Source: a virus (lineage: Duplodnaviria > Caudoviricetes). Taken from it: a stretch of 51,369 nucleotides of DNA. Below are positions 3,374-44,785 of this stretch, in pieces (position 1 is the first letter of the stretch; each line of letters begins with the position of its first letter). The notes beneath the pieces were generated by a model. The model saw only the letters and a list, made by a program, of their open reading frames with translations, ran no database searches and was not told the origin of the DNA. Location of the stretch: the IMG/VR virus record IMGVR_UViG_3300006164_000012, positions 1 through 51,369 of that record; one strand, 5' to 3'. A program made the translations under genes and the position numbers.

Positions 3374-6300
3374 ATGATAGAACTAAAAAAAGCAAGCGCA
3401 GTGTTGATGAGTACCGCATCCCTCATCGCAGTCGGAAACCTAATGGTTCAACAAGCTTCGGCTTTAGGGAATAAAATTGCAGCGACAGAAACTAAAGCTG
3501 ACGCTTTAGAAGGAAAATCCAATGTTCAGACTGGCGCCAACGGACAAGCCAAGGTAAACGGCAACGCCGGAAACACGGGAGACCCTGGCACAGTCGCCGC
3601 TGACGCAGGCGGAGCGAAAACCGTAGCTGATGCGGGGTATGCTCCATTCGTCCCAGGGACGGTCGCTGAGCCTCCTGACGAGGGAACCATGGAAGGTTTA
3701 TACAACGACGCGGCGGACCTGGCGGGTGATGCGGTAGGACTTGTTAATAAGTACGCAGGAAACGTAATGGGTCTTTTGATGGCATATAAAGGACTCATCG
3801 CTGGGTATAATATATTAATGGCACTTCTGGAGAAAAACCAAGCCGTTGTAAATGAAAGATTGAATAATAGAGCCGCAGGCACCGAGCCTGAGCCAGAAGT
3901 TAACTTTGCAGCGCTCGATACCGAAGACCTGCCTCCTGAAGTACAGCAAAGCGTAGACCGCGCTGCTGCAGAGTACCGAGACCTTGTTATATCGCAAGTA
4001 ATAGTCCCCCTTACTGAATTAGAGGCAAGGAAAGCAGTTGTGGCTTTACAACTTTCTGGGATAGGCGAACCAGTGCCTAGATTCGACTTAGAGTTTGGTC
4101 CACCTATATCTGCAGCTAACAAATTTATTTTATCTAAAGACGGTTTATATTACAACTCCCGAACCCAAGACGTCCCTACAGTCAATCCCAAAGAAGGAAG
4201 TGATAAGACCTGGGACCTAGATTACGCTTCAAACGTAGGTGGGCGAGGATTAACGTTTACTGAAGATGATACTTATGGAAATTTTGGTACGGTTTTCCAT
4301 ATCGACTCAGATGTTGGTAAAGGGAATCCAGTAGCTGAAGCGTATCATCAATATGACGATGTATTACAACAGTTTAACGATGATAAGATTTCTCAAATAA
4401 CCGAAGTCTCCGGTTACATTACAGAATTACTAGCTAACGACTACAGTGACGCAGACGCTTTAGTGCAGTCATATACAGCACAGCTGGCTGGAGTGGCTTC
4501 TACCTATGATTATAAAATAAAGAAAAGGGGGAAGCAGTTAGATTTAGCAGCCATATACGGGCGGGATAATTTCTTTCTCACTCAAAGAGACCACCCTTTA
4601 GGAGAAGGATTATTTTTTCAATACCACACTCCTGTAGGAAAAGCGTTTGAATACAATTTAAGGTATAAAGATTTAAATGATAAACTAAAATCTCTAACTT
4701 TTCTATCGGTACAGACTGATGAAGGTCCTTCGACAGTAGCCTGGAATAAAAAAACAAATAAGGTTACAGTGGTTCCCAACGCAGAAACAGTTATGGCAGC
4801 AGTAGGTGAATGGAAACAAATTCCAAGGATACCCATAAATGATTTTTCCTACCTCCAGGAGTCTGACATCAGCCTAGATACCCAAACAAAGCTAACTCTT
4901 TTCTCAGAAGATTTAGACACTGTAGTAGCTCCGTTCCAGGCGCGTTACGTGGTCGCACCAAACACACCCGAAACGTACAGCAAGAATCTGTCGGTTGACC
5001 CCATCGGGTTAGGTGATTGGGTAAAAAGAAAAGGGTCTCGAAGTTTAAGCTCCTCAGAACCGCTTTACAAATCTTTAACAGATGATATTGTCGATGATGA
5101 ATTGGTAGTTTGTTACAATTTCTTAGACCCTGATGCAATAACCCAACCTTCAGGGACTCTGTATGCATTAAATAATGCAGCGGAAGGCTCCACGAGATTG
5201 GACGCTAAATTAGTAGGAACTAACGCAAACCTTATATTTCCTTCTGGGGTGGGCACTGCTTACTTTGGCGGAACTATTTATGATATGCATTTATCTGAGT
5301 CCGCCGTTTGGGCAAATGTTAAAGGGTCTTACGCAAGGCTTCCGAATATTACTAAGGATTACGCGACATACAATCAACCAAACAAAGGAAGCCGTGTATT
5401 AGATAATTTATTTTACAGTATGGATGGCGTAACTTTTGATTTTTGGTCATATATACCTAGGGTGCATCGGGATATGACAGATGAACATCGCTACCGGTTA
5501 GTATTAGCAAATGAAAATAGCGGACCTGATTCAGGTCGATATGTAACATCTAACCCCAACAACCTAGAAAATACTGCTACAGATGGAAGTAAAACTATAG
5601 GAATGGTTATGGGGTGGAGAGACAAGGGAAGCCCTCAACACAAAAATAGTTATGTGACAAGTGGGTTAGAATTCTTTATAGCTCCTACAGTAGGACAAAA
5701 TCAATCATACACACGCAACCCGAATAATAGCTGGGGTCATAGCGTGTGCCTAGCAGAGAAATGGGGAGATGTAACCGCACCCACACCCTCACAAGTATCT
5801 GCCATTGGAATGTTTATCCCAAGCGCCACCCTCAACAGAAGCGGTTCCGGTATCGCCGATGTAAGCAGCTCCTACCTCCACTTTAATGTCGCTTTTGATT
5901 ATGAAGCAAACCAAGTGAGGGTGTGTCTGGACGGGGAGCTTTTAAGTACCTCTTCTTTGGTTGATGTATTAGGAGTAGACCCTAGAACCTCAGTCACGCC
6001 CACTGCAGCTCAGATAGGGAAAACCCCTCCCCTACCACCAGACCCCACACGAGGCACGGCGCCAAGTAAAGAAAGTTTTTTAGGGGTTAATATTTATGAC
6101 GAACCTTTAACACCTACACGGGTCCCCTTTCCCGTGTTTACACCTTGGATTATTGGTGGAGGGTATACAGACAACATCCCAAGCATAGAAGGTGCTGATT
6201 ACCGTCCAATGGGCTTCTTAGGCTCTAATACCAATAATATTTACCAACAAACTCATCCCGGAGCTGACGTAGTAACTACTACTATTGACGGTAAGACTTA

Positions 6301-6496
6301 CTTACAAGGACAGCACAATCCACCCCTATCTAATAGTAAGGGGTCCAGCGGTCCCACTACTCGCATAATCCCACGAAGTGGTTTAGATGGTTTTGTTGGT
6401 AGTTTTAAGATTTATGGAAAGCCCCTAACTACTACTGAGGCAAAACTTAATTTTGATGCTCAAAAAGGATTCTTTAAAAATATCTTAACCCCATAA
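3374..6496 (+). CDS. Virion structural protein with C-terminal LamG/concanavalin A-like domain
   Basis: LamG-like motifs TFDFWSYIP, LHFNVAFD..QVRVCLDGEL and GFVGSFKIYGKPLTTTEAKLNF; located in the baseplate cluster. Confidence 0.6.
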   Translation: MIELKKASAVLMSTASLIAVGNLMVQQASALGNKIAATETKADALEGKSNVQTGANGQAKVNGNAGNTGDPGTVAADAGGAKTVADAGYAPFVPGTVAEPPDEGTMEGLYNDAADLAGDAVGLVNKYAGNVMGLLMAYKGLIAGYNILMALLEKNQAVVNERLNNRAAGTEPEPEVNFAALDTEDLPPEVQQSVDRAAAEYRDLVISQVIVPLTELEARKAVVALQLSGIGEPVPRFDLEFGPPISAANKFILSKDGLYYNSRTQDVPTVNPKEGSDKTWDLDYASNVGGRGLTFTEDDTYGNFGTVFHIDSDVGKGNPVAEAYHQYDDVLQQFNDDKISQITEVSGYITELLANDYSDADALVQSYTAQLAGVASTYDYKIKKRGKQLDLAAIYGRDNFFLTQRDHPLGEGLFFQYHTPVGKAFEYNLRYKDLNDKLKSLTFLSVQTDEGPSTVAWNKKTNKVTVVPNAETVMAAVGEWKQIPRIPINDFSYLQESDISLDTQTKLTLFSEDLDTVVAPFQARYVVAPNTPETYSKNLSVDPIGLGDWVKRKGSRSLSSSEPLYKSLTDDIVDDELVVCYNFLDPDAITQPSGTLYALNNAAEGSTRLDAKLVGTNANLIFPSGVGTAYFGGTIYDMHLSESAVWANVKGSYARLPNITKDYATYNQPNKGSRVLDNLFYSMDGVTFDFWSYIPRVHRDMTDEHRYRLVLANENSGPDSGRYVTSNPNNLENTATDGSKTIGMVMGWRDKGSPQHKNSYVTSGLEFFIAPTVGQNQSYTRNPNNSWGHSVCLAEKWGDVTAPTPSQVSAIGMFIPSATLNRSGSGIADVSSSYLHFNVAFDYEANQVRVCLDGELLSTSSLVDVLGVDPRTSVTPTAAQIGKTPPLPPDPTRGTAPSKESFLGVNIYDEPLTPTRVPFPVFTPWIIGGGYTDNIPSIEGADYRPMGFLGSNTNNIYQQTHPGADVVTTTIDGKTYLQGQHNPPLSNSKGSSGPTTRIIPRSGLDGFVGSFKIYGKPLTTTEAKLNFDAQKGFFKNILTP

Positions 6497-6500
6497 ACTC

Positions 6501-6911
6501 ATGGTAACTTACAACCTTCAATACCAAAAAACCGAAAATAGAACAGACATCCTAGGAGTATCATTCCCTATGAAGTTTGAGGGTATTGGCGGTGTACTCA
6601 CCCAAAATGAAAATTTGGGGTCATTACGGGACGGAGTCGTCCAGTTACTAATGACCTCCAGGGGCGCACGTGTTATGAGACCCGATTATGGTACAGATAT
6701 TAGAAAATCCGTTTTCGAACCTATGGATAGCACAACAATCCAAACTTTAACAGGGCAAATAACCCAAACTATTGCAACATACGAACCTCGTGTTGTAGTA
6801 CACCAACTTAACATTATTCCTGATGAGGATAGAAACTCCCTAACTGTCAGTTTAATACTCTCAACAAAGAATGATTTACTTACCACTGCATCAGTGGCTT
6901 TAATAGTATAA
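6501..6911 (+). CDS. gp25: Baseplate wedge subunit, gp25-like
   Basis: LLMTSRGARVMRPDYGTDI..VFEP..IATYEPRV is the GPW/gp25 signature; 136 aa; next to gp6. Confidence 0.9.
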   Translation: MVTYNLQYQKTENRTDILGVSFPMKFEGIGGVLTQNENLGSLRDGVVQLLMTSRGARVMRPDYGTDIRKSVFEPMDSTTIQTLTGQITQTIATYEPRVVVHQLNIIPDEDRNSLTVSLILSTKNDLLTTASVALIV

Positions 6912-6912
6912 T

Positions 6913-8547
6913 ATGGCACAAGACTACTCAAAATTTTTCCAGGGGTTGTACAATACCTCTGGGTTTGACGGTACAATAGAATCTGATTTCTTAAAACTGG
7001 GACAGATTCCTGATGAACGTAAACCCGACTTGATTGATTACAATCTTAATGGTTTTAACGATTACCGCGCAGCTCTACAAAATTATCTTAGAGCGGTGTA
7101 CCCTCTTGACTACAATAACTTCGCAGCCTCCGACCTAGGTCAGATGCTACTGGAAATGTTTGCTTATATGGGAACTACCCTCACCTTACGCGCGGACATG
7201 ACGGCTAATGAAATGTATGTCGATACGGTTAAAGATAGGGGTAATCTTGGGCGCCTCCTCGAACTAATTGGTGTAGCTATGAAGGGACCTACCGCCTCTA
7301 AAGCGACTGGCAAACTAACCCTGCCAATTACATACCCTGAGATTGACGCCGGTGGAATCTACATAACACAAAACAACAGACGCATTCAAATTGTTAACCA
7401 GCGGAGCGGCACCCCCCTCACTTACTCAATTATGCGCCAGCAAGATAACGGAACTTTAAACGTCTTCAGTAAAGATATCCTTATCCCTAAAACAGACTTT
7501 GTAGGTGATGCAGTTAGTATGGCACACGCACCTAACCTTATGTTATTGGAGGGTGTTATTCAATCCCAAACAGGGGTTTTTGGGCAAGATGCCAACCGCC
7601 AGGTCATTACCATTACTAATGGTCCAGTTATCGAAGGTAGTCTAGGGGTTTCGTCTACCGAAAGCGGAGGCACTTATTACAACGAAATCTCTAATCTTTA
7701 TGTCGCCTCAGGAGGAAACACACCTGTGTTTGAGAAAAAGTACAACCAGGATATGACTGCAACCCTTTTCTTTGGGGACGGGGTTAGAGGAAGGATGCCT
7801 AGCCCAGGAGCTAATTACATAGTTACCTACCGCACAGGCGGCGGCGTCAACGGTGATATTGCCCGAGGTTCTTTGAATTCTCCTGTTACTGTGTTAAACG
7901 GTGTAGACAATATTAATGCTAATATTGAAAATAGTACAAAAGGTTCCGGCGGCACCGCAGCCGAAACTGTGGCTCACGCCAAACGCTACGCGCCCTACTT
8001 CTTCAGAACGCAATACCGAGCTGTTACAGGTGAGGATTACAATGCCTTGGCAAACTCCTTCGTGGGCGTCGCAGGAAAAACCGCAAAAGCAATGGCTTCT
8101 TTACGTAAAAACGGTGCAGCCGCAAACGTTATCGACCTGTTTGTTTTAGCTAAGGCTTCAGACACACAACTGGAACGAGCCTCGGTTGCATACAAAAAGG
8201 AACTGCTAGATTATTTCCAGAACTATAAAATGCTTACAGATGATATCGTGGTGTCCGATGGAGTGATTAGAACATTGGATTTAGTTGCAACTCTTTATAT
8301 TGATGAAAGCAATAGACGAAATGCAGATAATATAAAACAAAAGGCAGCAAACGAGTTGCTAAGATACTTTAATGTAGATAACCTGGAATTTGGTAAAGTA
8401 CTTTCTTTAGCTGACCTTAATAATTTTATGTTACAAGTACCTGAAGTAAGATTCTTTAAGATTAACAATATCGATTCCGATATATATTTAAATTTCAACG
8501 AAATTATCCAACTCAACAACTTTGAGTTTAAAATAGAACTAGTTTAA
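6913..8547 (+). CDS. gp6: Baseplate wedge subunit, gp6 / baseplate J-like
   Basis: SDLGQMLLEMFAY, ANEMY, FGDGVRG, YRTGGG..G, GG..AET..AK..AP and QYRAVT.EDY motifs typical of gp6. Confidence 0.9.
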   Translation: MAQDYSKFFQGLYNTSGFDGTIESDFLKLGQIPDERKPDLIDYNLNGFNDYRAALQNYLRAVYPLDYNNFAASDLGQMLLEMFAYMGTTLTLRADMTANEMYVDTVKDRGNLGRLLELIGVAMKGPTASKATGKLTLPITYPEIDAGGIYITQNNRRIQIVNQRSGTPLTYSIMRQQDNGTLNVFSKDILIPKTDFVGDAVSMAHAPNLMLLEGVIQSQTGVFGQDANRQVITITNGPVIEGSLGVSSTESGGTYYNEISNLYVASGGNTPVFEKKYNQDMTATLFFGDGVRGRMPSPGANYIVTYRTGGGVNGDIARGSLNSPVTVLNGVDNINANIENSTKGSGGTAAETVAHAKRYAPYFFRTQYRAVTGEDYNALANSFVGVAGKTAKAMASLRKNGAAANVIDLFVLAKASDTQLERASVAYKKELLDYFQNYKMLTDDIVVSDGVIRTLDLVATLYIDESNRRNADNIKQKAANELLRYFNVDNLEFGKVLSLADLNNFMLQVPEVRFFKINNIDSDIYLNFNEIIQLNNFEFKIELV

Positions 8548-34522: not shown

Positions 34523-37069
34523 ATGGACAATTTAACCACCTTCACCGACGCATACCTTAACATAGGGAACACCCTACTGTTGGAGTCTAAGATTGATGAT
34601 AGTAACGTCGCTGCCTGGGCTAAGAACTTTTCTATGTTGGACGAACCAACGCTTCAAAAGATACTAAGTCTTACTTCCGCTAAAGAAGAAGGCGACAGTT
34701 TAAAGATACAAGCAGGCGGGTCACCAGGAATACCCCTTTCTTTAGGGGACCAGGTAGGATATGCCGCCAATACAGCCGCAGGACAAACGGTAGTAACCAC
34801 TAATGGCAACCCCTATATGAATACCGACCAAAACAGTTGGAAATTTCTTATTGATTATGTCCTTAAAAATAAAGACCTTTTAGACGCTGAAGGGGAGGAT
34901 AAGAAGCCAGGCGATGACATTATCGCCCCTACCGAGTTCGACGCAGGCATGGACCCCAATGGTCCCCCCGAGGAAAACGAAAAGCTTCTACGAGCAGAAT
35001 CTGCAAAGATGTGTGAAGAGATGGCGACAGCCTGCGAGAAATTTACTGAGCAGGTAGATGACAACCTAAACCGTAAAAACATACCAGCATCTGCACGGAA
35101 AAATATGGGCTGCGATGAACCCTCATCTACTAATCTGTGTAACCAGATGCTAGGTCTTACCTCTCAAGGTCGTATGTCGAAGGTTGCTATGGAAGGTTGC
35201 ACGACAGCCCAAGAATGTATAGATAACGCTAGAGCTATTATGGAGCAGAGAATCGCTTTATATAAGCTGAGTAATAAGGTACTTACCCCTGACTTTGACC
35301 CTGCGAGTCTTACACCAGAAGAAATCCAGCTTCTTTCCTGCGTTAAAATGAGAGGCACGGGAAATAAGCGAGGCGTCTGGATTTCAGGAGGGAAAGGGTG
35401 TGAAGGAGTTATCGCGGCACTTGCTACGGGGGACGGTCTTACCGGAGATGAAAGGTACGGTATTATGGTGGGAAACCAGAACAGTGCGCTTTGGCGCGCA
35501 ATGAAAGCTGCCCAAGACAAAGGTTATACGGTAGGAGAAGGTGACGAAAAAGAAAATATCATTACCCAAGGTACAGATGAGAGTGGTTTGATAAATTGGT
35601 ATAACGCTACCTTTGGAAGAATAAACGAAAAATTACTCACTTTTGCAATGTGCCTCGCCCATGCACCGAAAGGAGTGTTGACAGGGGAGCAAAAGAAGTG
35701 CGCAGCAGATGCAGTCCGCGAGATTGTCGCCGAGTTAGGGGGGAATATGGGTTTCCAGAAAATGTTCGATATGGTAGGGAAAAAGTTAGATGACCCTGAG
35801 TCTGACTTTGATTACGGTAGCATTGTGGACAAAGGTGCGGAGGCGAAAGCTGAAGAGATGGTTAAGTGGGCACAGGAGAATGGTATCGACCTAGGGGATG
35901 ACGAGGAGAGGGCTCTTAAAATTATAGCTTACCTACTAACACAAGGAGTTAAGAGGTGGGAGGTAGTAGCTTCACGGATGCCCCCAGGCAGTAAAGTACT
36001 TCAAGTAGGTGCTTCGGTAGTAGGTGTTGACCCTTATGGCAACGTAGATAACGCGGATTCTATTGTTAAAATGCCTGGAGGCTCGAAACAGGAAGAGGAA
36101 TTCCTAGATAGTATAACAACCGAGCCGTTATATGCCGTTACAGAGGAGCAGTGCCCTGGACGAGATGATGGGCAAGGTCTCGGCATCACCACAAAAGAAA
36201 ATACAAAAAAACAAAAAGGTAAAATGGCAGCAGGAAGCCGTGGTCTGACGAAGACCCAGTCGGAACAAGCAGGGCTTGCGCGGGATAAGGCGAAGTGTTA
36301 CGCTAACGCGGTTTGCGACAATCACAAAAAGGCAGGAGAGGATTGCGGCTTAGAAGAAGGGTGGGAGGAGAACGAAGCAGAGTACCGTCAAAACCTTGAA
36401 GATAAAGTGGATGAGTCTATAAGTGCTTTAGCCCAAGCAGACCAAAGTACCTTGGAAGCAGACCAAAGAGATAAAACCTCTAGGATGTCCTACGAAGACG
36501 CTCAGAATCAAAAAGAGTTCTGGGACGATGTAAAGGCGTGGAAGGCGGAAAAAGACCCTGGCAAAAAGAAAAATATGGAGTCCCAGTTAAGAAATAGAAT
36601 GACCATAGCAACACAAGCAAGGGACTTCGAAAATGATGTGCCTGGATGCCGTGAAAAGCTGATGATAGATGCTATGTATACAGGAGGCTCTACTAGAGAC
36701 CAAGCCTACGTAGAAACCTCTCCAGGCGAGCCTACACGTATAGCTCGCGAGAGCGATATTATGGGTCCTGCTGCAATGGCGTTTATAACTACACCTAAAG
36801 AAGATATTAGTTTTTCTCAAGGAAGTATTACCCTTAAAGGTATTGGCACCCTCACCCTTCGATTGAAAGGGATGAATGAGGATGGAACTGGGGGAAGTAA
36901 CAAACAGTTCTTTAATGTAGAAAAGTCGTTCGTTCACGGACAGACCCGACCGATAGAGGTAGATGAAAGCGCTGCTGTAGGTAACTCAAGTATGAAAGCC
37001 GAAGACTTCGTTCGGAAGCTCCAAGAACTCTTTCAAGGGATAAATGAAATACTCCCCGTCAAGAACTAA
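34523..37069 (+). CDS. Large hypothetical protein (848 aa, acidic, Cys-rich)
   Basis: Long ORF; no family recognised with confidence; N-terminal LLLES motif. Confidence 0.6.
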   Translation: MDNLTTFTDAYLNIGNTLLLESKIDDSNVAAWAKNFSMLDEPTLQKILSLTSAKEEGDSLKIQAGGSPGIPLSLGDQVGYAANTAAGQTVVTTNGNPYMNTDQNSWKFLIDYVLKNKDLLDAEGEDKKPGDDIIAPTEFDAGMDPNGPPEENEKLLRAESAKMCEEMATACEKFTEQVDDNLNRKNIPASARKNMGCDEPSSTNLCNQMLGLTSQGRMSKVAMEGCTTAQECIDNARAIMEQRIALYKLSNKVLTPDFDPASLTPEEIQLLSCVKMRGTGNKRGVWISGGKGCEGVIAALATGDGLTGDERYGIMVGNQNSALWRAMKAAQDKGYTVGEGDEKENIITQGTDESGLINWYNATFGRINEKLLTFAMCLAHAPKGVLTGEQKKCAADAVREIVAELGGNMGFQKMFDMVGKKLDDPESDFDYGSIVDKGAEAKAEEMVKWAQENGIDLGDDEERALKIIAYLLTQGVKRWEVVASRMPPGSKVLQVGASVVGVDPYGNVDNADSIVKMPGGSKQEEEFLDSITTEPLYAVTEEQCPGRDDGQGLGITTKENTKKQKGKMAAGSRGLTKTQSEQAGLARDKAKCYANAVCDNHKKAGEDCGLEEGWEENEAEYRQNLEDKVDESISALAQADQSTLEADQRDKTSRMSYEDAQNQKEFWDDVKAWKAEKDPGKKKNMESQLRNRMTIATQARDFENDVPGCREKLMIDAMYTGGSTRDQAYVETSPGEPTRIARESDIMGPAAMAFITTPKEDISFSQGSITLKGIGTLTLRLKGMNEDGTGGSNKQFFNVEKSFVHGQTRPIEVDESAAVGNSSMKAEDFVRKLQELFQGINEILPVKN

Positions 37070-37891: not shown

Positions 37892-38189
37892 TAAGGACCT
37901 AAACGCGGTTTTAAAACGCCGTAGGACTGACAACTTTGTCGTACTTTATCACTCCCTATGGGACGATTGGAGCCAACGGGTGGTGAAGTACGCTGAAGAG
38001 TGGGCGGAGAAAGAAGGTAACGAAACCATTTACTTAGTAAACAGTTGGGACTTACCTCAAGCATTTTCTTCATTTTCCATTACCTCCGCACCTGCGTTGG
38101 TTCACGTCAAGAATAAAAAGGTTAGGGTTGATGTTGAGTATCCGAAGATTTATAATTTCTTCCATGCTAATCCTCCAAGAAAGACTTAA
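37863..38189 (+). CDS. Thioredoxin-fold protein lacking the CxxC motif
   Basis: FVVLYHSLWDDWSQ sits at the WCxxC position; IYLVNS strand; FSITSAPALVHVK cis-Pro loop. Start could be 37854 or 37863. Confidence 0.65.
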   Translation: MRTLKTLQTDKDLNAVLKRRRTDNFVVLYHSLWDDWSQRVVKYAEEWAEKEGNETIYLVNSWDLPQAFSSFSITSAPALVHVKNKKVRVDVEYPKIYNFFHANPPRKT

Positions 38190-38529
38190 TTTTTTTATCA
38201 CGGTACTGCTGAATCTTCTCTCTATATTTTTTATTTTTTGTATAAATTAATTTGAGATTATTAATAATAACCGTGGTAAAATAATTGAAAGCCGAACCCT
38301 TTTCCTTAGTAAAGTTCTTTAATACTTTAAGGCATAGCACGAAACACTCTTGTTTAGCATCCTCATGTTCTACTTTAAATTTGAATGAAATCAAAATACT
38401 AGTAATCAAAAGGTCTAACTGTTTGATAAGCTCATCTTCGTGCTCGCTATGATTACCCAGATAATTAAAGATTGTTTCTTCAAACTTCTTGTTATCTATG
38501 TAATGCTTCTTTTTTTTGCGTGTCGCCAT
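38167..38529 (-). CDS. gp55: Late-transcription sigma factor, gp55-like
   Basis: HYIDNKKF at the N-terminus and EDAKQEC...KNF..EKGSAFNYFTTVI match T4-like gp55 patterns; only 120 aa. Confidence 0.8.
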   Translation of the reverse strand: MATRKKKKHYIDNKKFEETIFNYLGNHSEHEDELIKQLDLLITSILISFKFKVEHEDAKQECFVLCLKVLKNFTKEKGSAFNYFTTVIINNLKLIYTKNKKYREKIQQYRDKKIKSFLED

Positions 38530-38544
38530 AACTCATAATAGACA

Positions 38545-39516
38545 ATGGATTTAGAAAAAATAATAGAATCTTTCGATAAAGATGAAAAAACCAAAGATTA
38601 TTCAGCAACTGACGTTGGTGATGAGAAAATTGTCTTTGTAACTACCTGCCAATACAGAGAACGTGGAAGTCTTTATGATTTCAATGACCATGAGTATGGT
38701 ATTATCTGTAACTTACTAGAACAGACTAACGTACCAAAGGGTCATTATCAGTTCATTCCCGCAATACGGGAACCTAACACAGTAGAGGACGACCTCTCAA
38801 CTGCCGATTACAACACGCACCGCCCATTCCTCTTTGCGGACTTAGAGACGGCAAACCCCGACCTTATCATCCCACTCGGAAATGTAGCTTTGAAAACGTT
38901 ACTCAAGAAGTCTGGTTTGTTTAATAAGCGGGGTAGGGAGTTTCTTTATGAGGGATGCCCAGTTGTCCCCACCTACAGCTCAGACCTAGTCTTCTTAGAG
39001 CCTAAGCTCCGCAAACTGTTTATTCAGGATGTGAACAACGCTTACGATAAGTTCATCTTAAATAAGAATAAGTTCGACGGCTCAAGCTACGTTCTATGTA
39101 AAACCATAGAGGAGTTTAATGAGCAGATGGATATAGCTGAGCAATATACTGCCTTAGGGTGTGACATAGAAACCACTGGCTTAGATTTTAAGAAAGACGA
39201 GATGTCCACAATCGCAATAGCCTCTGGTGAGCACCAAGCATTCACTGTCCCTATTAACCATAGGGAAAGTCCTTTCGATGATAAAGATAAAAAAGTTATC
39301 AAAGAAAGATTAGCAGCCTTAATGGCAAACAAAAGCATCGAGAAAATTTTTCATAACTGCCAATTTGATATTAAATTCATGAAGACCTTCGGGATAAATG
39401 AGTTTCACAACATTGGAGATACGAAAATTATGCACTCGCTACTCGATGAGAATCTTCCGCACGGTCTTATGGACTTAGTGAAGGAGTTCTTCCCCCAAGA
39501 ATTGGAGAAATTTTAA
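38545..39516 (+). CDS. DNA polymerase N-terminal subunit: degenerate UDG family-4-like domain plus ExoI/ExoII half of the 3'-5' exonuclease
   Basis: NPDLIIPLGNVALKTLL..RG..PVVPTY (UDG-like), CDIETTGLD (ExoI), IFHNCQFD (ExoII) and GDTKIMHSLLDEN..HGL..L. Confidence 0.85.
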   Translation: MDLEKIIESFDKDEKTKDYSATDVGDEKIVFVTTCQYRERGSLYDFNDHEYGIICNLLEQTNVPKGHYQFIPAIREPNTVEDDLSTADYNTHRPFLFADLETANPDLIIPLGNVALKTLLKKSGLFNKRGREFLYEGCPVVPTYSSDLVFLEPKLRKLFIQDVNNAYDKFILNKNKFDGSSYVLCKTIEEFNEQMDIAEQYTALGCDIETTGLDFKKDEMSTIAIASGEHQAFTVPINHRESPFDDKDKKVIKERLAALMANKSIEKIFHNCQFDIKFMKTFGINEFHNIGDTKIMHSLLDENLPHGLMDLVKEFFPQELEKF

Positions 39517-40499
39517 TGATTACAGTAGATTATATTTGGTTAGATGGCACAGAAGACATGCCTCAATTACGTTCGAAGACTCGCGTCTTTGAAAAACCCC
39601 ACGCACTTCCTGAATTACCTGATTGGTCTTTTGATGGAGGAAGTACAAACCAAGGAAGCGTTAAAGACTCAGACCGAGTCCTGCACCCTGTGCGTTTATA
39701 CAAGAACCCTTTTAATGAAGGTAACTACTTGGTACTATGTGAAGTGAACAACATTGATGGTACCCCCCACGAAACAAATCAACGCCATCTTTTGCGGACT
39801 CAACTAGAGAAGGGAGGTATGGACTGCTCTTGGTTTGGATTTGAGCAAGAGTATACTTTAACTGACCCAATGCAACAGCCCCTTGTGCCTGAGGAGATTA
39901 CACAAGGAGAATTTTACTGTGGTATCGGAGCCGGTAGGGTTATTGGAAGGTTAGTAGCCGAGGAACACCTTAAAAATTGCTATGACGCAGGTATTACCTT
40001 GTTTGGCAATAACGCAGAGGTCATGATTTCTCAGTGGGAATACCAAACCAATCCTAAGGAAGCCTTAGATGCTGCCGATGATTTGTGGATGGCTCGGTAT
40101 ATTATGGAGCGAGGTACGGAGAAATTCAACATGCGAGTCTCTTACCACCCTAAAATCTATAAGGACCTGAACGGCGCCGGTTGCCATGTAAATGTTTCAA
40201 CTTCACAAACCCGTAAAAGCCTTAATACAAAAGAGACGGGCGATATAATGAAGAAGTTCAAGAAGACGCACAAAGACCATATTAATGTCTATGGTAGTGG
40301 AAACGAATTACGTTTAACAGGAGAACACGAAACTTCTAGTTTCGATAAATTCACTTGGGGTGTGGGTGACCGTGGCGCAAGTGTACGTATCCCCTCCGGC
40401 GTTGCACTGCAAGAGAAAGGTTACTTTGAGGACCGCCGTCCTGCGGCGACCTGTGACCCCTACCAAGTTACCTCCCGTATACTCGAAACGCTAGAGTAA
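39516..40499 (+). CDS. glnII: Glutamine synthetase type II
   Basis: YIWLDG, LRSKTR, WSFDGGST.Q, WFGFEQEY, YCGIGA, NAEVM..QWEYQ, HPK..NGAGCH.N.S, RLTG.HET, DRGASVRIP and GYFEDRRPA. Confidence 0.95.
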   Translation: MITVDYIWLDGTEDMPQLRSKTRVFEKPHALPELPDWSFDGGSTNQGSVKDSDRVLHPVRLYKNPFNEGNYLVLCEVNNIDGTPHETNQRHLLRTQLEKGGMDCSWFGFEQEYTLTDPMQQPLVPEEITQGEFYCGIGAGRVIGRLVAEEHLKNCYDAGITLFGNNAEVMISQWEYQTNPKEALDAADDLWMARYIMERGTEKFNMRVSYHPKIYKDLNGAGCHVNVSTSQTRKSLNTKETGDIMKKFKKTHKDHINVYGSGNELRLTGEHETSSFDKFTWGVGDRGASVRIPSGVALQEKGYFEDRRPAATCDPYQVTSRILETLE

Positions 40500-40687
40500 T
40501 GTTAAGGGATAATCTACCCCCTCAACAAAAACATAACGCAACCGAAACCCTAAAACAGATTCTAGAGACTATAATACAAATAGGAGAAGCGACTCAAGTA
40601 AGCCCCATGGCTAATAGTAGATACGTAAACCTGATTTTTGACCTAAGCCACTTAATTGAAGAACTGAAATATGCTGACCGTAACTGA
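40499..40687 (+). CDS. Small hypothetical helical protein
   Basis: 62-aa ORF coupled to the GS stop by TAATG and overlapping the polymerase C-part start by 17 nt. Confidence 0.55.
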   Translation: MLRDNLPPQQKHNATETLKQILETIIQIGEATQVSPMANSRYVNLIFDLSHLIEELKYADRN

Positions 40688-42185
40688 TGGAGGAGCCTTT
40701 GACTGGGCAAATATGCCCTTGGACGACATGGCGTTGGGAAACGCCATGGACGCCGATTTTACTTTAAGAGCTTATAACGCTATGACGAGCGATATGAAAG
40801 GGAAGGGCGTAAACCATGTTTACGATAAACTTCTTAGAGACATTTTGGTCGTCGCATCTAATATAGAACACAAAGGTATCCTTGTAGATGGGGACTGTGT
40901 TAAGAAATTTGATGTGCTTCTTACAAAGGAAGTTGGTGAGCTGTACGCCAAGCTATCAGAGTTATCAGTTATTGACGGGGTAAACCCAAACTCTAACGCA
41001 GACATGGGGTTACTCCTGTTTACTAAAGAAGGTTTTGGTTTAAGGGCGCTTGAGTTTTCCAAGAAAACCAAGGCAGCTTCTATCACTGAAGCTCATCTTA
41101 AGAAAGTAGCTGTTACTGCCAAAGGAGATGCAAAGGAATACATTGAACTCCTATTAAAATACAAAGGTCGTATGAAGCAACATAAGACCTATGTTAAAGG
41201 CGTTGAAAAAGCGGTAGCTTATAACGAAGACGGTCGCGTATACTCAAGTTACAATTTTGGTAACGTGGTAACTGGACGTCTAAGCTGTTCAACCTACACA
41301 GTAGGCAAAGAGCGTAAAGGTATTTCCTTTCACACCTTACCGCGACCTGATGAGAATGACGCAGTTAATCTTCGTAGCATGATGACGGCAGATGATGATA
41401 AAGTGTTTGTAGCGGCTGACTTCTCTCAAGCAGAGTTGCGTGTACTCGCACAATGCTGCAAGGATAAAAACCTAATTGAAGCATTTAACTCCGGACAAGA
41501 CTTACACCGATTCACAGCTTCACTTGTGTTTGGAAAAGACCCTGCCGAAGTAACTAAACAAGAAAGGCAGATTGCTAAAAGTGTTAGCTTCCTTATCGTT
41601 TATGGAGGAGGTCCCAACAAACTCGCAGAGCAGATTGGGAAGGATATAGGTTACTGTAAAAATATTTTCCGTGCCTACCAAGATTCATTCCCTAAAGTTT
41701 TTGAATGGATTAGTTTTGTACACAAGTTTGTTAAAGCTAACGGTTACGCCGTAAGTATCTTCGGTCGCCGACGACACCTACCAAACGTAACAAGCCCCAA
41801 CCGTAAGTATCAATACCGCGCTTTACGTCAAGGGATGAACTTCGTAATCCAAAGCTCAGCATCAGACCTTATGCTGCACTCTATCTTGAGGTTAAATAAG
41901 TACTTAGCTGCCACGGGCATAGACGCACAGATTCTAGCGACAGTACACGACTCCGTAGAGGTACAGTGTTCCCGAAAGGACCTGTCCAAAACTGTTGAGT
42001 TAATGAAGTATGTGTTACAAAGCACAGACGAGTTTAAGGGTTTGTATGGCTTAGATTTTATTGTACCTTTTGAGGTCGATGTTGAAGCTGGCAAATCTTT
42101 TGGGGACATGATTGACGTAAAGTTTAATCCTGCTGGACAGTTCCTAAATAACGATGAGATTATAAATTATGTCGACAACATCTAA
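40671..42185 (+). CDS. polA: Family A DNA polymerase catalytic subunit (ExoIII segment plus polymerase domain)
   Basis: TGRLS, motif A ADFSQAELRVLA, DLH, motif B RQIAKSVSFLIVYG, FGRRR, N..IQS.ASD and motif C VHDS. Confidence 0.95.
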   Translation: MLTVTDGGAFDWANMPLDDMALGNAMDADFTLRAYNAMTSDMKGKGVNHVYDKLLRDILVVASNIEHKGILVDGDCVKKFDVLLTKEVGELYAKLSELSVIDGVNPNSNADMGLLLFTKEGFGLRALEFSKKTKAASITEAHLKKVAVTAKGDAKEYIELLLKYKGRMKQHKTYVKGVEKAVAYNEDGRVYSSYNFGNVVTGRLSCSTYTVGKERKGISFHTLPRPDENDAVNLRSMMTADDDKVFVAADFSQAELRVLAQCCKDKNLIEAFNSGQDLHRFTASLVFGKDPAEVTKQERQIAKSVSFLIVYGGGPNKLAEQIGKDIGYCKNIFRAYQDSFPKVFEWISFVHKFVKANGYAVSIFGRRRHLPNVTSPNRKYQYRALRQGMNFVIQSSASDLMLHSILRLNKYLAATGIDAQILATVHDSVEVQCSRKDLSKTVELMKYVLQSTDEFKGLYGLDFIVPFEVDVEAGKSFGDMIDVKFNPAGQFLNNDEIINYVDNI

Positions 42186-43188
42186 AGTAGTTATACTAAC
42201 TGACCTGCATTTACGTGCAGATTATTTCCCGGGGTTCCTAGACAGACAAGTGGAAACCCTACTCCATCTAACCAACAAGAAGCCTTGTGATTACGTTGTT
42301 ATTAACGGTGACGTATTCGAGCGTAGAAACCCTAGAAGTGAGGAACTACTCGCTTTCGGTTACTTGTTAGATAATATTAAATGTAAAAATATTATCGTAA
42401 ACAGAGGTAACCACGACACCTTACGTAAAGACGGGACATCGGATACAATCCTGTCTCTGTTTTCTGAGAAGGCTCGTATAGTTAAAGATACCGAGACCAT
42501 ACGTTTAGGAGACATCAATTTCGATTTCATTCCCCACTACGAAGATGAGGATAGGATAATTGCTGACCTAAAGAAAAATAAAAATCCTGTGTTTGGACAC
42601 TTTGGATTTGATGGGTGTGTATCTAACGGACACTATGCGTATGAAGCCCGTGTAAAGAAATGGCACTTTAAGAAAAAGCCAATTGCGTTTTTAGGACACA
42701 TACATAAGCCTAAAATCTATGACAACGTTGTTATCTTAGGAACTCAATACTCCAACACTTTTGGGGAAGCTAACGCCACTAAGTTCGTACATGAGCTGGT
42801 GTTACGTGGGCAAGATATAGAGCTTATTAAAAAGCCTATAGGTAAAGGTATTAAACATATTGTAGGAACCATAGACGAAATCCCTGCCTTAGCCAAGAAG
42901 CACAAGTTCGAAGACTTCTTCACAATCCTCAGAGTTAAAATGGATAAGCTAGACTCGTATACTGAACAGAGACTACGCGACGAGATTTTTGCAGAGTACC
43001 CTATCCAAAGCCTTGAGCTTGTATTTGAGGACGTACTTCCGAAGTTCGAGTCCGGGTATATCCCTAAGAACCGTATATTCAGTTTAGATGAAAAGGTTAT
43101 TGATGATTACATTAATGCTAGTGATTCTATTTTTGATAAGAAGGATATTTTGAAAGCGTTAAAGGAAATAAAAGATGAAGTTAAATAA
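42169..43188 (+). CDS. gp47: Recombination endonuclease subunit (gp47 / Mre11 / SbcD-like)
   Basis: Metallophosphoesterase motifs DLH, GDVF, GNHD, GHF and GHIH. Confidence 0.9.
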   Translation: MSTTSKVVILTDLHLRADYFPGFLDRQVETLLHLTNKKPCDYVVINGDVFERRNPRSEELLAFGYLLDNIKCKNIIVNRGNHDTLRKDGTSDTILSLFSEKARIVKDTETIRLGDINFDFIPHYEDEDRIIADLKKNKNPVFGHFGFDGCVSNGHYAYEARVKKWHFKKKPIAFLGHIHKPKIYDNVVILGTQYSNTFGEANATKFVHELVLRGQDIELIKKPIGKGIKHIVGTIDEIPALAKKHKFEDFFTILRVKMDKLDSYTEQRLRDEIFAEYPIQSLELVFEDVLPKFESGYIPKNRIFSLDEKVIDDYINASDSIFDKKDILKALKEIKDEVK

Positions 43189-44785
43189 ATTAGAAATATA
43201 TAATTTTTTATCGATTAAGGAGGCTGTAGTAGATTTTGATTCCTATGGCAACTTAGTCCGTATCGTCGGTAAGAACTACGACACCAAACCACGTAGCTCC
43301 AACGGCGCAGGTAAAAGCTCGATTATCGAAGCGGTTATGTTTGCGTTGTTTGGAAAGACCATACGTAAGACCAACGATAAGAGTTTAAAGAATTATCGTA
43401 CCAAAGGTAAGTGCCGGGTTGTACTTACAGTTAATGGGGATACGGTAATAGAGAGAATAAAGAAAGCTCCCATGTTATCCGTTACTGTAGGAGATGAGAA
43501 CTGTACACAGGAATCTATTCAAGCCACTCAAAAGTACCTTGAGCAGATTCTTAATATCAATCACAATGTATTCCTAGCCTCAATTGTATTTGGTCAAGGG
43601 AATACAACCAACTTCCTCTCTGCCACCCCCGAAGAGAAGAGAGCCATTATACAAAACTTCCTTTCTGTAGGAGACTTGTTTAAGAACCGTAGTGTTATTA
43701 AGTCCTTAAAATCAAAGTACCTACAGGAGAAGAAACTTAACCTAACGTTGTTAAGTAACGGAACCAATAAGATTGATAAGCTACAGAACAAACTCAAGAA
43801 GCTTCGGGAGTTGAAGAAGATTTCTAAGAGTTATTTGAGTTCTGAGAAATATAAATTTATTTTTGGTAAGACTCTGACCGAGATTCAGGAACAGGAACGC
43901 GCACACCACGAAAAGGACTTAGAGTATGAACGTACTATGACGCACAGAGACGTCGTTAGAGAGCGTATAGTCCAAACCCATTCAATGATAAAGAACCTAC
44001 AGGACGCGAACTGTGAGCACTGTGGAAAGCTCTCTCACATGAACTGGGGTAAAGTTCAAGATATGGAGGCTAAGATACAGGAGTGGTCTACTGAAGAACG
44101 AGGTTTAGTGAAGCTGGTAACTGCTTTAGCTAAAGAGGTGGATTCCCTACAGATACCCGTAACCACGGAAGACTTCGAGACAATCGAAAGGTTTAAGGAG
44201 ATAGACACGGAAGTCAAGATTCTCTCAGCCCAACAGAAGGAAGAGAAGAAGATGATTCGTAAGTACGGTGACCTATCTACGGTCGCTCAAAAGGGTTACG
44301 ACCTCATGAAGTTCTGGGAACACGCTTTCTCGGAAGCCGGGCTGATTAAGTACGTCATCCGTAACATCCTAGAGTACATGAATGAGAGGTGCAACTCGTA
44401 TCTAAGTACGCTGACTAAGGGAAATTTTGTTATAAAATTCGACGACTCTTTGTCTGAAGAGCTCTATAATGATGGAGTCATGTGCCACTTCGAATCCCTT
44501 TCCGGAGGAGAGAAGAAGCGCGTTTCTTTAGCGGTAATGTTGGGTTTGAATGACCTACTCTTATTAACAGGAAAAGACCGCTCCAACATCATCTTTTTTG
44601 ATGAAGTGGCGGATTCTCTTGACGACGATGGGGTCAAAGGCTTAATTGAGCTAATCCATCAACTCACTGAACACAAGAAATTGTTCTTAATTACTCATAA
44701 TGAGTACTTAACTTCTCTTCTTGAAGAATATTCTGAAACTTTAACTGTTTCAAAACGTAATAATATTACCAAAATCACTAAATAA
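43175..44785 (+). CDS. gp46: Recombination ATPase subunit (gp46 / Rad50 / SbcC-like)
   Basis: Walker A NGAGKS, zinc hook CEHC, signature LSGGEKKR, Walker B FFDE and H-loop ITH. Confidence 0.93.
   Translation: MKLNKLEIYNFLSIKEAVVDFDSYGNLVRIVGKNYDTKPRSSNGAGKSSIIEAVMFALFGKTIRKTNDKSLKNYRTKGKCRVVLTVNGDTVIERIKKAPMLSVTVGDENCTQESIQATQKYLEQILNINHNVFLASIVFGQGNTTNFLSATPEEKRAIIQNFLSVGDLFKNRSVIKSLKSKYLQEKKLNLTLLSNGTNKIDKLQNKLKKLRELKKISKSYLSSEKYKFIFGKTLTEIQEQERAHHEKDLEYERTMTHRDVVRERIVQTHSMIKNLQDANCEHCGKLSHMNWGKVQDMEAKIQEWSTEERGLVKLVTALAKEVDSLQIPVTTEDFETIERFKEIDTEVKILSAQQKEEKKMIRKYGDLSTVAQKGYDLMKFWEHAFSEAGLIKYVIRNILEYMNERCNSYLSTLTKGNFVIKFDDSLSEELYNDGVMCHFESLSGGEKKRVSLAVMLGLNDLLLLTGKDRSNIIFFDEVADSLDDDGVKGLIELIHQLTEHKKLFLITHNEYLTSLLEEYSETLTVSKRNNITKITK
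44778..44784 (+). promoter_or_regulatory. Putative late promoter element CTAAATA before groES
   Basis: Same heptamer as at 3357 and 31161, 14 nt before the groES ATG; overlaps the end of gp46. Confidence 0.35.

Follow-up and report, generated by a model that had tools for sequence, protein, structure and literature searches.

The 51,369-nucleotide (nt) stretch of DNA examined here, IMG/VR record IMGVR_UViG_3300006164_000012 (Duplodnaviria; Caudoviricetes; hereafter the window), carries an unusual form of the phage family A DNA polymerase (PolA). The enzyme is encoded by two genes, cut between the second and third motifs of its proofreading exonuclease (ExoII and ExoIII), the products of which probably fold into one replicative enzyme, and the gap between the genes is a variable slot in which cargo genes are likely exchanged. 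Its tenants in the window are a glutamine synthetase (GS) of type II and one small gene.

The locus

The locus comprises four open reading frames (ORFs) on the + strand. Polymerase piece 1 (38545-39516; 323 amino acids, aa) contains a degenerate domain resembling the uracil-DNA glycosylases (UDG) of family 4 (residues ~27-170), then an exonuclease core with ExoI (D207, E209) and ExoII (D275), and ends before ExoIII. It is followed by the GS gene (39516-40499; 327 aa; Pfam Gln-synt_N and Gln-synt_C), the 62-aa second cargo gene (40499-40687), and polymerase piece 2 (40671-42185; 504 aa), which starts with an ExoIII helix (G23 replacing the usual Tyr, D27) and continues into the thumb, palm, and fingers of a family A polymerase. 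TAATG stop-start overlaps lie at 39516 and 40499, and a TGA in frame with piece 2 lies at 40665; the start of piece 2 is not coupled by TAATG, and its gene overlaps the 62-aa ORF by 17 nt. An earlier sequence-only reading of the window had described these four ORFs, the overlaps, and the TGA, and all were recovered to the base. It had also pointed out that deleting 39516-40670 would yield a TAATG junction, and such a junction is real in relatives L035, L036, L045, L058, and L088.

That reading had named chimeric assembly as a way in which it could be wrong. Logan contigs from studies P3 and P4 span 39516, 40499, and 40671, with at least 31 bases on each side where listed, and those from study P2 span 40499 and, through a variant contig, 40671; run X1, a possible source of the record, was excluded from this check. 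As contigs from other studies bridge the junctions, the split is not an assembly artefact. The runs holding at least half of the sampled words of the stretch are marine metagenomes. The GC content of the insert (0.44-0.45) equals that of its surroundings and gives no sign of recent arrival.

Two pieces of one polymerase

Profile searches bear out the proposal that PolA is split inside its proofreading domain. Piece 1 covers positions 4-134 of the 173 in Pfam DNA_pol_A_exo1 and then ends; on the NCBIfam Pol I profile (889 positions), piece 1 occupies 286-431 and piece 2 occupies 449-887. Piece 2 is a family A DNA polymerase by its Pfam match (PF00476, E 6e-80), and its alignment with the Klenow fragment starts from the segment preceding ExoIII and pairs G23 with the Tyr and D27 with the Asp of that motif; the sequence-only reading had already noted the Gly in place of the usual Tyr. 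The codons for G23-D27 lie at 40737-40751. The acidic residues of the three Exo motifs, which a DnaQ-like exonuclease has on one chain, are thus divided, with those of ExoI and ExoII on piece 1 and the ExoIII Asp on piece 2. Nor is the DnaQ-like YxxxD of ExoIII present, as Gly replaces Tyr in 62/62 split forms; the Tyr is retained in the 16 nearest fused proteins printed.

Both pieces are well conserved. D207, E209, and D275 are invariant in 62/62 piece 1 sequences, as are G23, D27, D250, and E255 in 62/62 piece 2 sequences, and the motif A, B, and C residues (D250, E255, R299, K303, Y311, H426, and D427) are kept in every row covering them. Over seven pairs, the ratio of nonsynonymous to synonymous substitution (dN/dS) ranges from 0.036 to 0.178 in piece 1 and from 0.027 to 0.103 in piece 2.

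The UDG-like domain, which the earlier reading had missed, was recognized by profile and by Foldseek matches to family 4 UDG structures. Using motif definitions that we take to be those of the family, the window domain lacks the motifs A and B and the Fe-S cysteines of an active family 4 UDG: it has FVTTCQY at the motif A position and PTYSS at motif B (the His is retained in 40/62 relatives). Piece 1 scores 22 bits with TIGR00758 against a cut-off of 125. Given these degenerate motifs, the domain is likely structural or DNA-binding. Such a role has been proposed for the UDG domain of N4-like enzymes (PMC10201439). At the other end of piece 1, the C-terminal residue (39511-39513) is Phe or Tyr in 58/62 sequences and might fill the place of the ExoIII Tyr.

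A predicted proofreading site shared between chains

The sequence-only reading had proposed a heterodimer in which the second chain completes the proofreading site in trans; such a complex is supported by this conservation, by the selection on both pieces, and by a controlled co-fold. The window pair scored 0.92 (runs 0.86, 0.92, and 0.92) versus 0.00 for the best of three controls, with at least 92% of contacts in common between runs and a partner predicted local distance difference test (pLDDT) score of at least 84; the mark used is passed by 116/157 solved complexes and 2/215 mismatched pairs. In the predicted interface, piece 2 residues 20-38 are buried against the ExoI strand and ExoII helix of piece 1 (residues 203-217 and 268-277). 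When AlphaFold2, a program other than that used for the co-fold, models the chains alone, pLDDT is below 50 at residues 295-308 and 311-323 of piece 1 and at residues 1-27 of piece 2. In the mechanism that we propose, the first ~40 residues of piece 2 would dock on piece 1, and D27 would join D207, E209, and D275 in one predicted two-metal site. None of five long records, one of them 93% complete, has a PolB match, and each has exactly one exonuclease match.

Some considerations tell against this account of the enzyme. Halves of a split gene can pass a co-fold through their likeness to solved single-chain PolA, and hence the result shows that the pieces fit and is weak proof that they bind. 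The pairing of Asp residues at the metal site rests on alignment, with D275 absent from the named contacts, and the uniform replacement of the ExoIII Tyr by Gly may weaken proofreading.

A split that probably arose once

Scans of viral, metagenome, and genome collections gave 262 loci including the window. Both ends of the junction were present in 226, which reduce to 108 distinct junction sequences, some of them nearly identical and one the window's own; the other 36, with one half missing or partial, were excluded from the census. The earlier reading had suggested looking among related contigs for fused, split-adjacent, and split-with-cargo versions. Fused junctions did not turn up (0/108), which sets these loci apart from single-polypeptide UDG-PolA, and both split versions exist, 18/108 with the halves adjacent and 90/108 with cargo. 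The end of piece 1 is fixed: in 248/248 loci it does not vary by more than a single residue, being either identical in position or one residue earlier. Frameshifts in L014 and L051 each occur in a single contig and were treated as errors.

Because the seeds had been drawn from the split clade, a second search was made that did not depend on a word index. It listed 150 representatives (50% identity) matching the piece 1 profile, of which the best 62 are all at most 361 aa long, and the first fused protein ranks 63rd. Among short representatives that reach the end of the profile, 60/61 terminate there; a weak match to the piece 2 profile was seen in 1 of the top 62, and 65/65 long representatives also match piece 2. 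None of the 120 best piece 2 relatives exceeds 519 aa. In a quick tree of the polymerase core, in which the fused rows have long branches, the 28 split rows group together in a single clade (SH-aLRT 100) against 18 fused rows, requiring one change. We infer from these comparisons that the split arose once and long ago. Its geometry fits a clean fission: fused homologue P0002 has 21 residues from a conserved Pro to the PL before ExoIII, equal to the 6 + 15 residues of the window. In other fused neighbours the linker is shorter.

Among cultured phages no close relative was found, the best identities being ~23-33% and the top matches being annotated as DNA polymerases. Searches of longer proteins returned only distant fused proteins (3 and 17 matches at 21-35% identity), blanks in such searches being weak evidence. 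One unrelated PolA (L321:2018-4483) has a stop right after ExoIII in a single contig; this is either an error or an independent split, and it was excluded from the count of the split described here.

A slot with variable cargo

GS occupies 59 of the 108 junctions and 31 carry different cargo without it; in the remaining 18, the empty ones, the gap measures -1, +1, or +2 nt. Alone or in combination, the slot families include the 62-aa family (33), an ~84-aa family (10), ThyX (8), saccharopine-dehydrogenase-like proteins (5), PF20472 nucleases (5, plus L033), DUF3310, and unknowns. When filled, the gap measures 162-3732 nt and is fully coding. The 62-aa ORF of the window has no Pfam, PHROG, or NCBIfam match and no Atlas family (scores 0.80-0.81); its dN/dS is 0.10-0.29 (three pairs). 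Among the larger tenants, a full-length saccharopine-dehydrogenase-like gene sits in the slot of L037 (4952-6004), L043, L079, and L080, and a 659-aa ORF without Pfam or PHROG family follows GS and ThyX in the slot of L032 (4017-5993).

Inserts of more than 150 nt occur at this junction in 90/108 cases versus 0/94, 0/95, 0/98, 0/102, 0/88, 0/76, 0/37, and 0/37 at eight neighbouring junctions. The TAATG junctions between GroES and ribonucleotide reductase (0/37) and between dUTPase and DnaB (0/28) have no inserts, so the type of overlap is not the explanation. On a tree of 62 of 70 junctions (eight were left out as too short), GS presence must have switched at least 12 times and cargo at least 30, in many cases from one sister to the other; L098 is empty and its sister lineage L099 has GS, and the same holds for L045 and L048. 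In approximately unbiased (AU) tests, one polymerase clade is incompatible with the GS tree (p-AU 2e-7), as is one GS clade, of the two tried, with the polymerase tree (p 1e-55).

Not all of the evidence favours exchange. The polymerase tree does not reject the other GS clade (p 0.067), and the groups used in the AU tests were named after the trees had been seen. Two farther junctions also have inserts (3/20 and 2/11), and the junctions are related rather than independent. Deep GS clades broadly track polymerase clades, and the pattern is therefore in part that of a gene long inherited vertically and repeatedly lost. On the evidence of these trees, GS is an old tenant of the slot, with repeated loss, replacement, and local swaps.

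The flanks of the slot suggest how the swaps may occur. The left flank (the final 30 codons of piece 1 plus the stop, 39424-39516) and the right flank (the initial 30 codons of piece 2, 40671-40760) each have a mean pairwise DNA identity of 0.71 over 42 loci, ranking 3 and 2, respectively, against 61 windows with a median of 0.61, and no other measured junction exceeds 0.65 on both sides. In one run, a left-flank variant contig has a depth of 35 versus mostly 4-8 elsewhere, as expected if several strains share the flank. At the insert ends we found only short two-copy repeat matches, none present at both junctions. Cargo exchange likely proceeds by homologous recombination in the flanks: ordinary gene ends do not have two conserved flanks, and as the slot has both, co-infecting relatives could swap cargo by crossovers within them. 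A single fission in an ancestral UDG-PolA would have made an intergenic junction with DNA on either side that is kept constant by the demands of catalysis and of the interface. Any gene arriving there would inherit coupled translation within the replication operon, which likely favours nucleotide-supply genes such as GS (glutamine donor), ThyX, and the deoxynucleoside monophosphate (dNMP)-kinase-like gene found at a second split, described below.

Glutamine synthetase

The GS of the window is a full-length match to a solved type II enzyme (E 1.5e-91) with the type II fold and the active-site residues, whose roles we presume to be those of human GS; 16/17 checked motif positions are invariant in 37/37 sequences. 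It scores 336.7 bits with NCBIfam GlnII, below the equivalog cut-off of 500, and has a dN/dS of 0.057-0.167. The enzyme is likely active and, judged by its operon position, likely co-expressed with the polymerase. Glutamine is a nitrogen donor in nucleotide synthesis. Viral type II GS was noted in Global Ocean Sampling data (PMC1821046), and four huge-phage records of 635-735 kb (LR756501.1, LR756502.1, LR756503.1, and LR745206.1) carry type II homologues at 44-46% identity.

The sequence-only reading had this nitrogen-assimilation gene wired into the translation of the polymerase. The gene is indeed intact, likely co-expressed, and the commonest tenant; the special wiring holds up less well, as the slot is empty or filled with other genes in 49/108 junctions and the coupling is generic. 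In 69/70 junctions the next ATG lies at most 4 nt from the piece 1 stop, whichever gene follows, and TAATG joins 9/36 listed same-strand gene pairs in the window, so tight coupling is not special to GS.

Polymerases in three pieces

In 12/108 junctions, piece 2 is itself divided, into a 157-aa and a 371-aa protein whose genes overlap at ATGA (L045, at 6001-7586, L046, L048-L050, L131, L238, L239, L246, L251, L252, and L260). This second cut falls at the thumb loop, where the Klenow alignment has a gap, and both parts have a dN/dS below 0.05 in both unsaturated pairs. Distant relatives L284 (4758-7903), L285, L286, L287, and L289 are also in three pieces; the second gap of L284 holds a P-loop kinase-like gene with a weak DNMK match. 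The UDG-like domains of L284-L287 and L289 have N-terminal cysteine clusters, which are absent from the clade of the window. The two three-piece groups do not form one clade (p-AU 0.037), which leaves either two origins of the second cut or a re-fusion.

Comparison with known systems

Split PolA is already known, cut after ExoIII or inside the polymerase domain; that of the window is cut between ExoII and ExoIII. The T7-like cyanophages S-SBP1 and S-TIP37 have a PolA split into exonuclease and polymerase genes (PMC10201439, PMC12695635), and resemble the window in being phage PolAs divided by fission with an AlphaFold2-predicted complex. They differ in that the exonuclease gene of S-SBP1 holds YCIQD (checked here), so its cut follows ExoIII and a single chain carries the whole active site, and in that the two genes overlap, whereas the window's cut precedes ExoIII. 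The window enzyme is instead a UDG-PolA of myophages with cargo in the gap, and does not belong to the S-SBP1 type. Its nearest fused relatives are the single-chain UDG-PolAs of N4-like cluster 17 and of SPO1, SP-10, and SP-15 (PMC10201439), which have the same order of UDG-like, exonuclease, and polymerase domains but on one chain, keep the ExoIII Tyr, and are ~21-35% identical to piece 1.

In OM43 phages MEP401 and MEP402, PolA likewise occupies two ORFs around a small ORF, an arrangement common in that phage group, but there the polymerase domain is the part that is cut, the exonuclease being intact, and an intron was left open by the authors (PMC10580990). Essential enzymes in two chains with variable DNA between their genes are also found in the PolB (gp43A/gp43B) of Aeromonas phages 25 and 44RR and the NrdA of Aeh1, and the PolB halves of phage 25 co-purify and are active (PMC2988022). 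These are a family B polymerase or a reductase, however, and the inserts named in the available part of that paper are homing endonucleases or untranslated spacer. CCPol-MP resembles piece 2 in being a polymerase with only the last exonuclease helices, where a partner is predicted to bind; that partner is an unrelated beta-barrel, and a complementary exonuclease gene was not found (PMC10201439). Our search of the open-access literature, supplements and subscription papers aside, found no ExoII/ExoIII cut, no cargo slot at such a site, and no three-piece PolA. A metabolic gene reportedly lies between 43A and 43B in some of the phages with a split PolB, which the literature search did not confirm.

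Alternative explanations

The strongest competitor, unlikely but not exclusive of the slot, is that the arrangement is kept specifically so that GS is made stoichiometrically with the polymerase at replication time. The frequency and integrity of GS, the purifying selection on it, the lack of a GS match beyond the slot in the loci examined, and the presence of ThyX and the dNMP-kinase-like gene in splits would all suit this idea. The junctions without GS, the sister lineages that differ in it, and the generic coupling do not, and neither does a 93%-complete relative that has no GS match and carries ThyX ~20 kb from its polymerase. It is improbable, we believe, that the pieces associate with proofreading dead or weak, piece 1 acting as a structural or processivity subunit made of a UDG-like DNA-binding domain and an exonuclease scaffold. 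The Tyr-less ExoIII, set against the Tyr of the printed fused neighbours, and the degenerate UDG motifs agree with such a subunit, and Czernecki et al. state that the stability of PolAs depends on the exonuclease domain, inactive or not (PMC10201439). Yet D207, E209, D275, and D27 are invariant in 62/62 sequences down to ~42% identity, which is unlikely for a dead site.

Slightly less probable again is a free-standing homing endonuclease that made the split and drives cargo turnover, for which mobE in Aeh1 nrdA and seg43 in phage 25 offer precedents (PMC2988022). Genes for PD-(D/E)XK nucleases (PF20472) do occupy the slot at six or more junctions, but they are limited to one subclade, no HNH or GIY-YIG gene was found among the scanned cargo, and this junction holds no cargo in the split relatives that branch deepest. 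PF20472 is not, to our knowledge, a homing family. We give very little weight to an intron or translational bypass that would restore one full-length polymerase, even though phage polA introns are known and one has been suggested for MEP401/402 (PMC10580990): an Rfam scan of the window gave 0 matches, including any to group I or II introns, the gap is fully coding over its whole range of lengths, and piece 2 begins at a conserved start codon of its own, closely preceded by a stop in the same frame. The empty forms, moreover, retain the stop, and as their gaps are -1, +1, or +2 nt, no single frame rule could rejoin the halves. A chimeric assembly or decaying pseudogene, for which one could cite only the single-contig frameshifts elsewhere, is practically negligible and is refuted by the 108 distinct junctions, the bridging contigs in other studies, and dN/dS below 0.2 in both halves. 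We regard a heterodimeric polymerase with a variable cargo slot as the probable reading.

Genome context and further observations

The window is a 51-kb virus record in which a Pfam search identifies T4-like capsid, sheath, and tube genes. Upstream of piece 1, on the - strand, lies a divergent 120-aa sigma-70 region 2-like gene (38167-38529) with weak, below-cut-off Pfam and NCBIfam matches; no insert precedes piece 1 in 102/102 loci. The starts of the two genes are separated by 15 nt (38530-38544), and a TATAG/TAATAG-like word is kept right before the ATG in most relatives; from the sequence, overlapping promoters with leaderless transcripts are possibly located here. By eye, a Shine-Dalgarno sequence is seen at few window genes. 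Downstream, SbcD-like and SbcC-like genes (42169-44785, + strand) come next in the replication operon, without inserts between piece 2 and SbcD (88/88) or between SbcD and SbcC (76/76), and the replication block continues with GroES, ribonucleotide reductase, dUTPase, DnaB, and a gp32-like protein.

A sigma-70 scan gave 18 sites versus 9.9 +/- 2.8 expected, including one within GS (40222-40249), a result that is not interpretable for this phage. The scan for terminator-like sites found none on the + strand between the pieces. Very large ORFs (up to 1606 aa) with slight or no PHROG match are present among the tail genes (29-24501 and 34523-37069). Relatives L181 and L182 lie on short contigs of one Planctomycetales metagenome-assembled genome, with ThyX in one slot and the other empty; they may be a weak host hint, as phage DNA there is possibly mis-binned.

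Significance

If the reading set out here is true, this is a natural PolA with a proofreading site that becomes complete only when the products of two genes come together, and some lineages have a PolA of three chains. It would show where the Klenow fold tolerates cuts, and would make it possible to test directly whether the ratio of subunits controls proofreading and how an ExoIII without Tyr performs. In its broadest form, to which we give about even chances, there would be a widespread uncultured phage family with a two- or three-subunit PolA and a chain-shared, Tyr-less metal site, in which each cut in the conserved catalytic core makes a cassette slot primed for recombination and circulating metabolic genes, and gene fission would be a general route to hot spots of auxiliary genes. 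The reading set out above would also offer a testable reason for the gathering of auxiliary genes such as GS at one spot. It would also mean that more than 60 clusters resembling stand-alone UDG/exonuclease proteins, and polymerases that seem to lack proofreading, are halves of one enzyme, and that polA marker surveys of marine viruses are affected by such misread halves.

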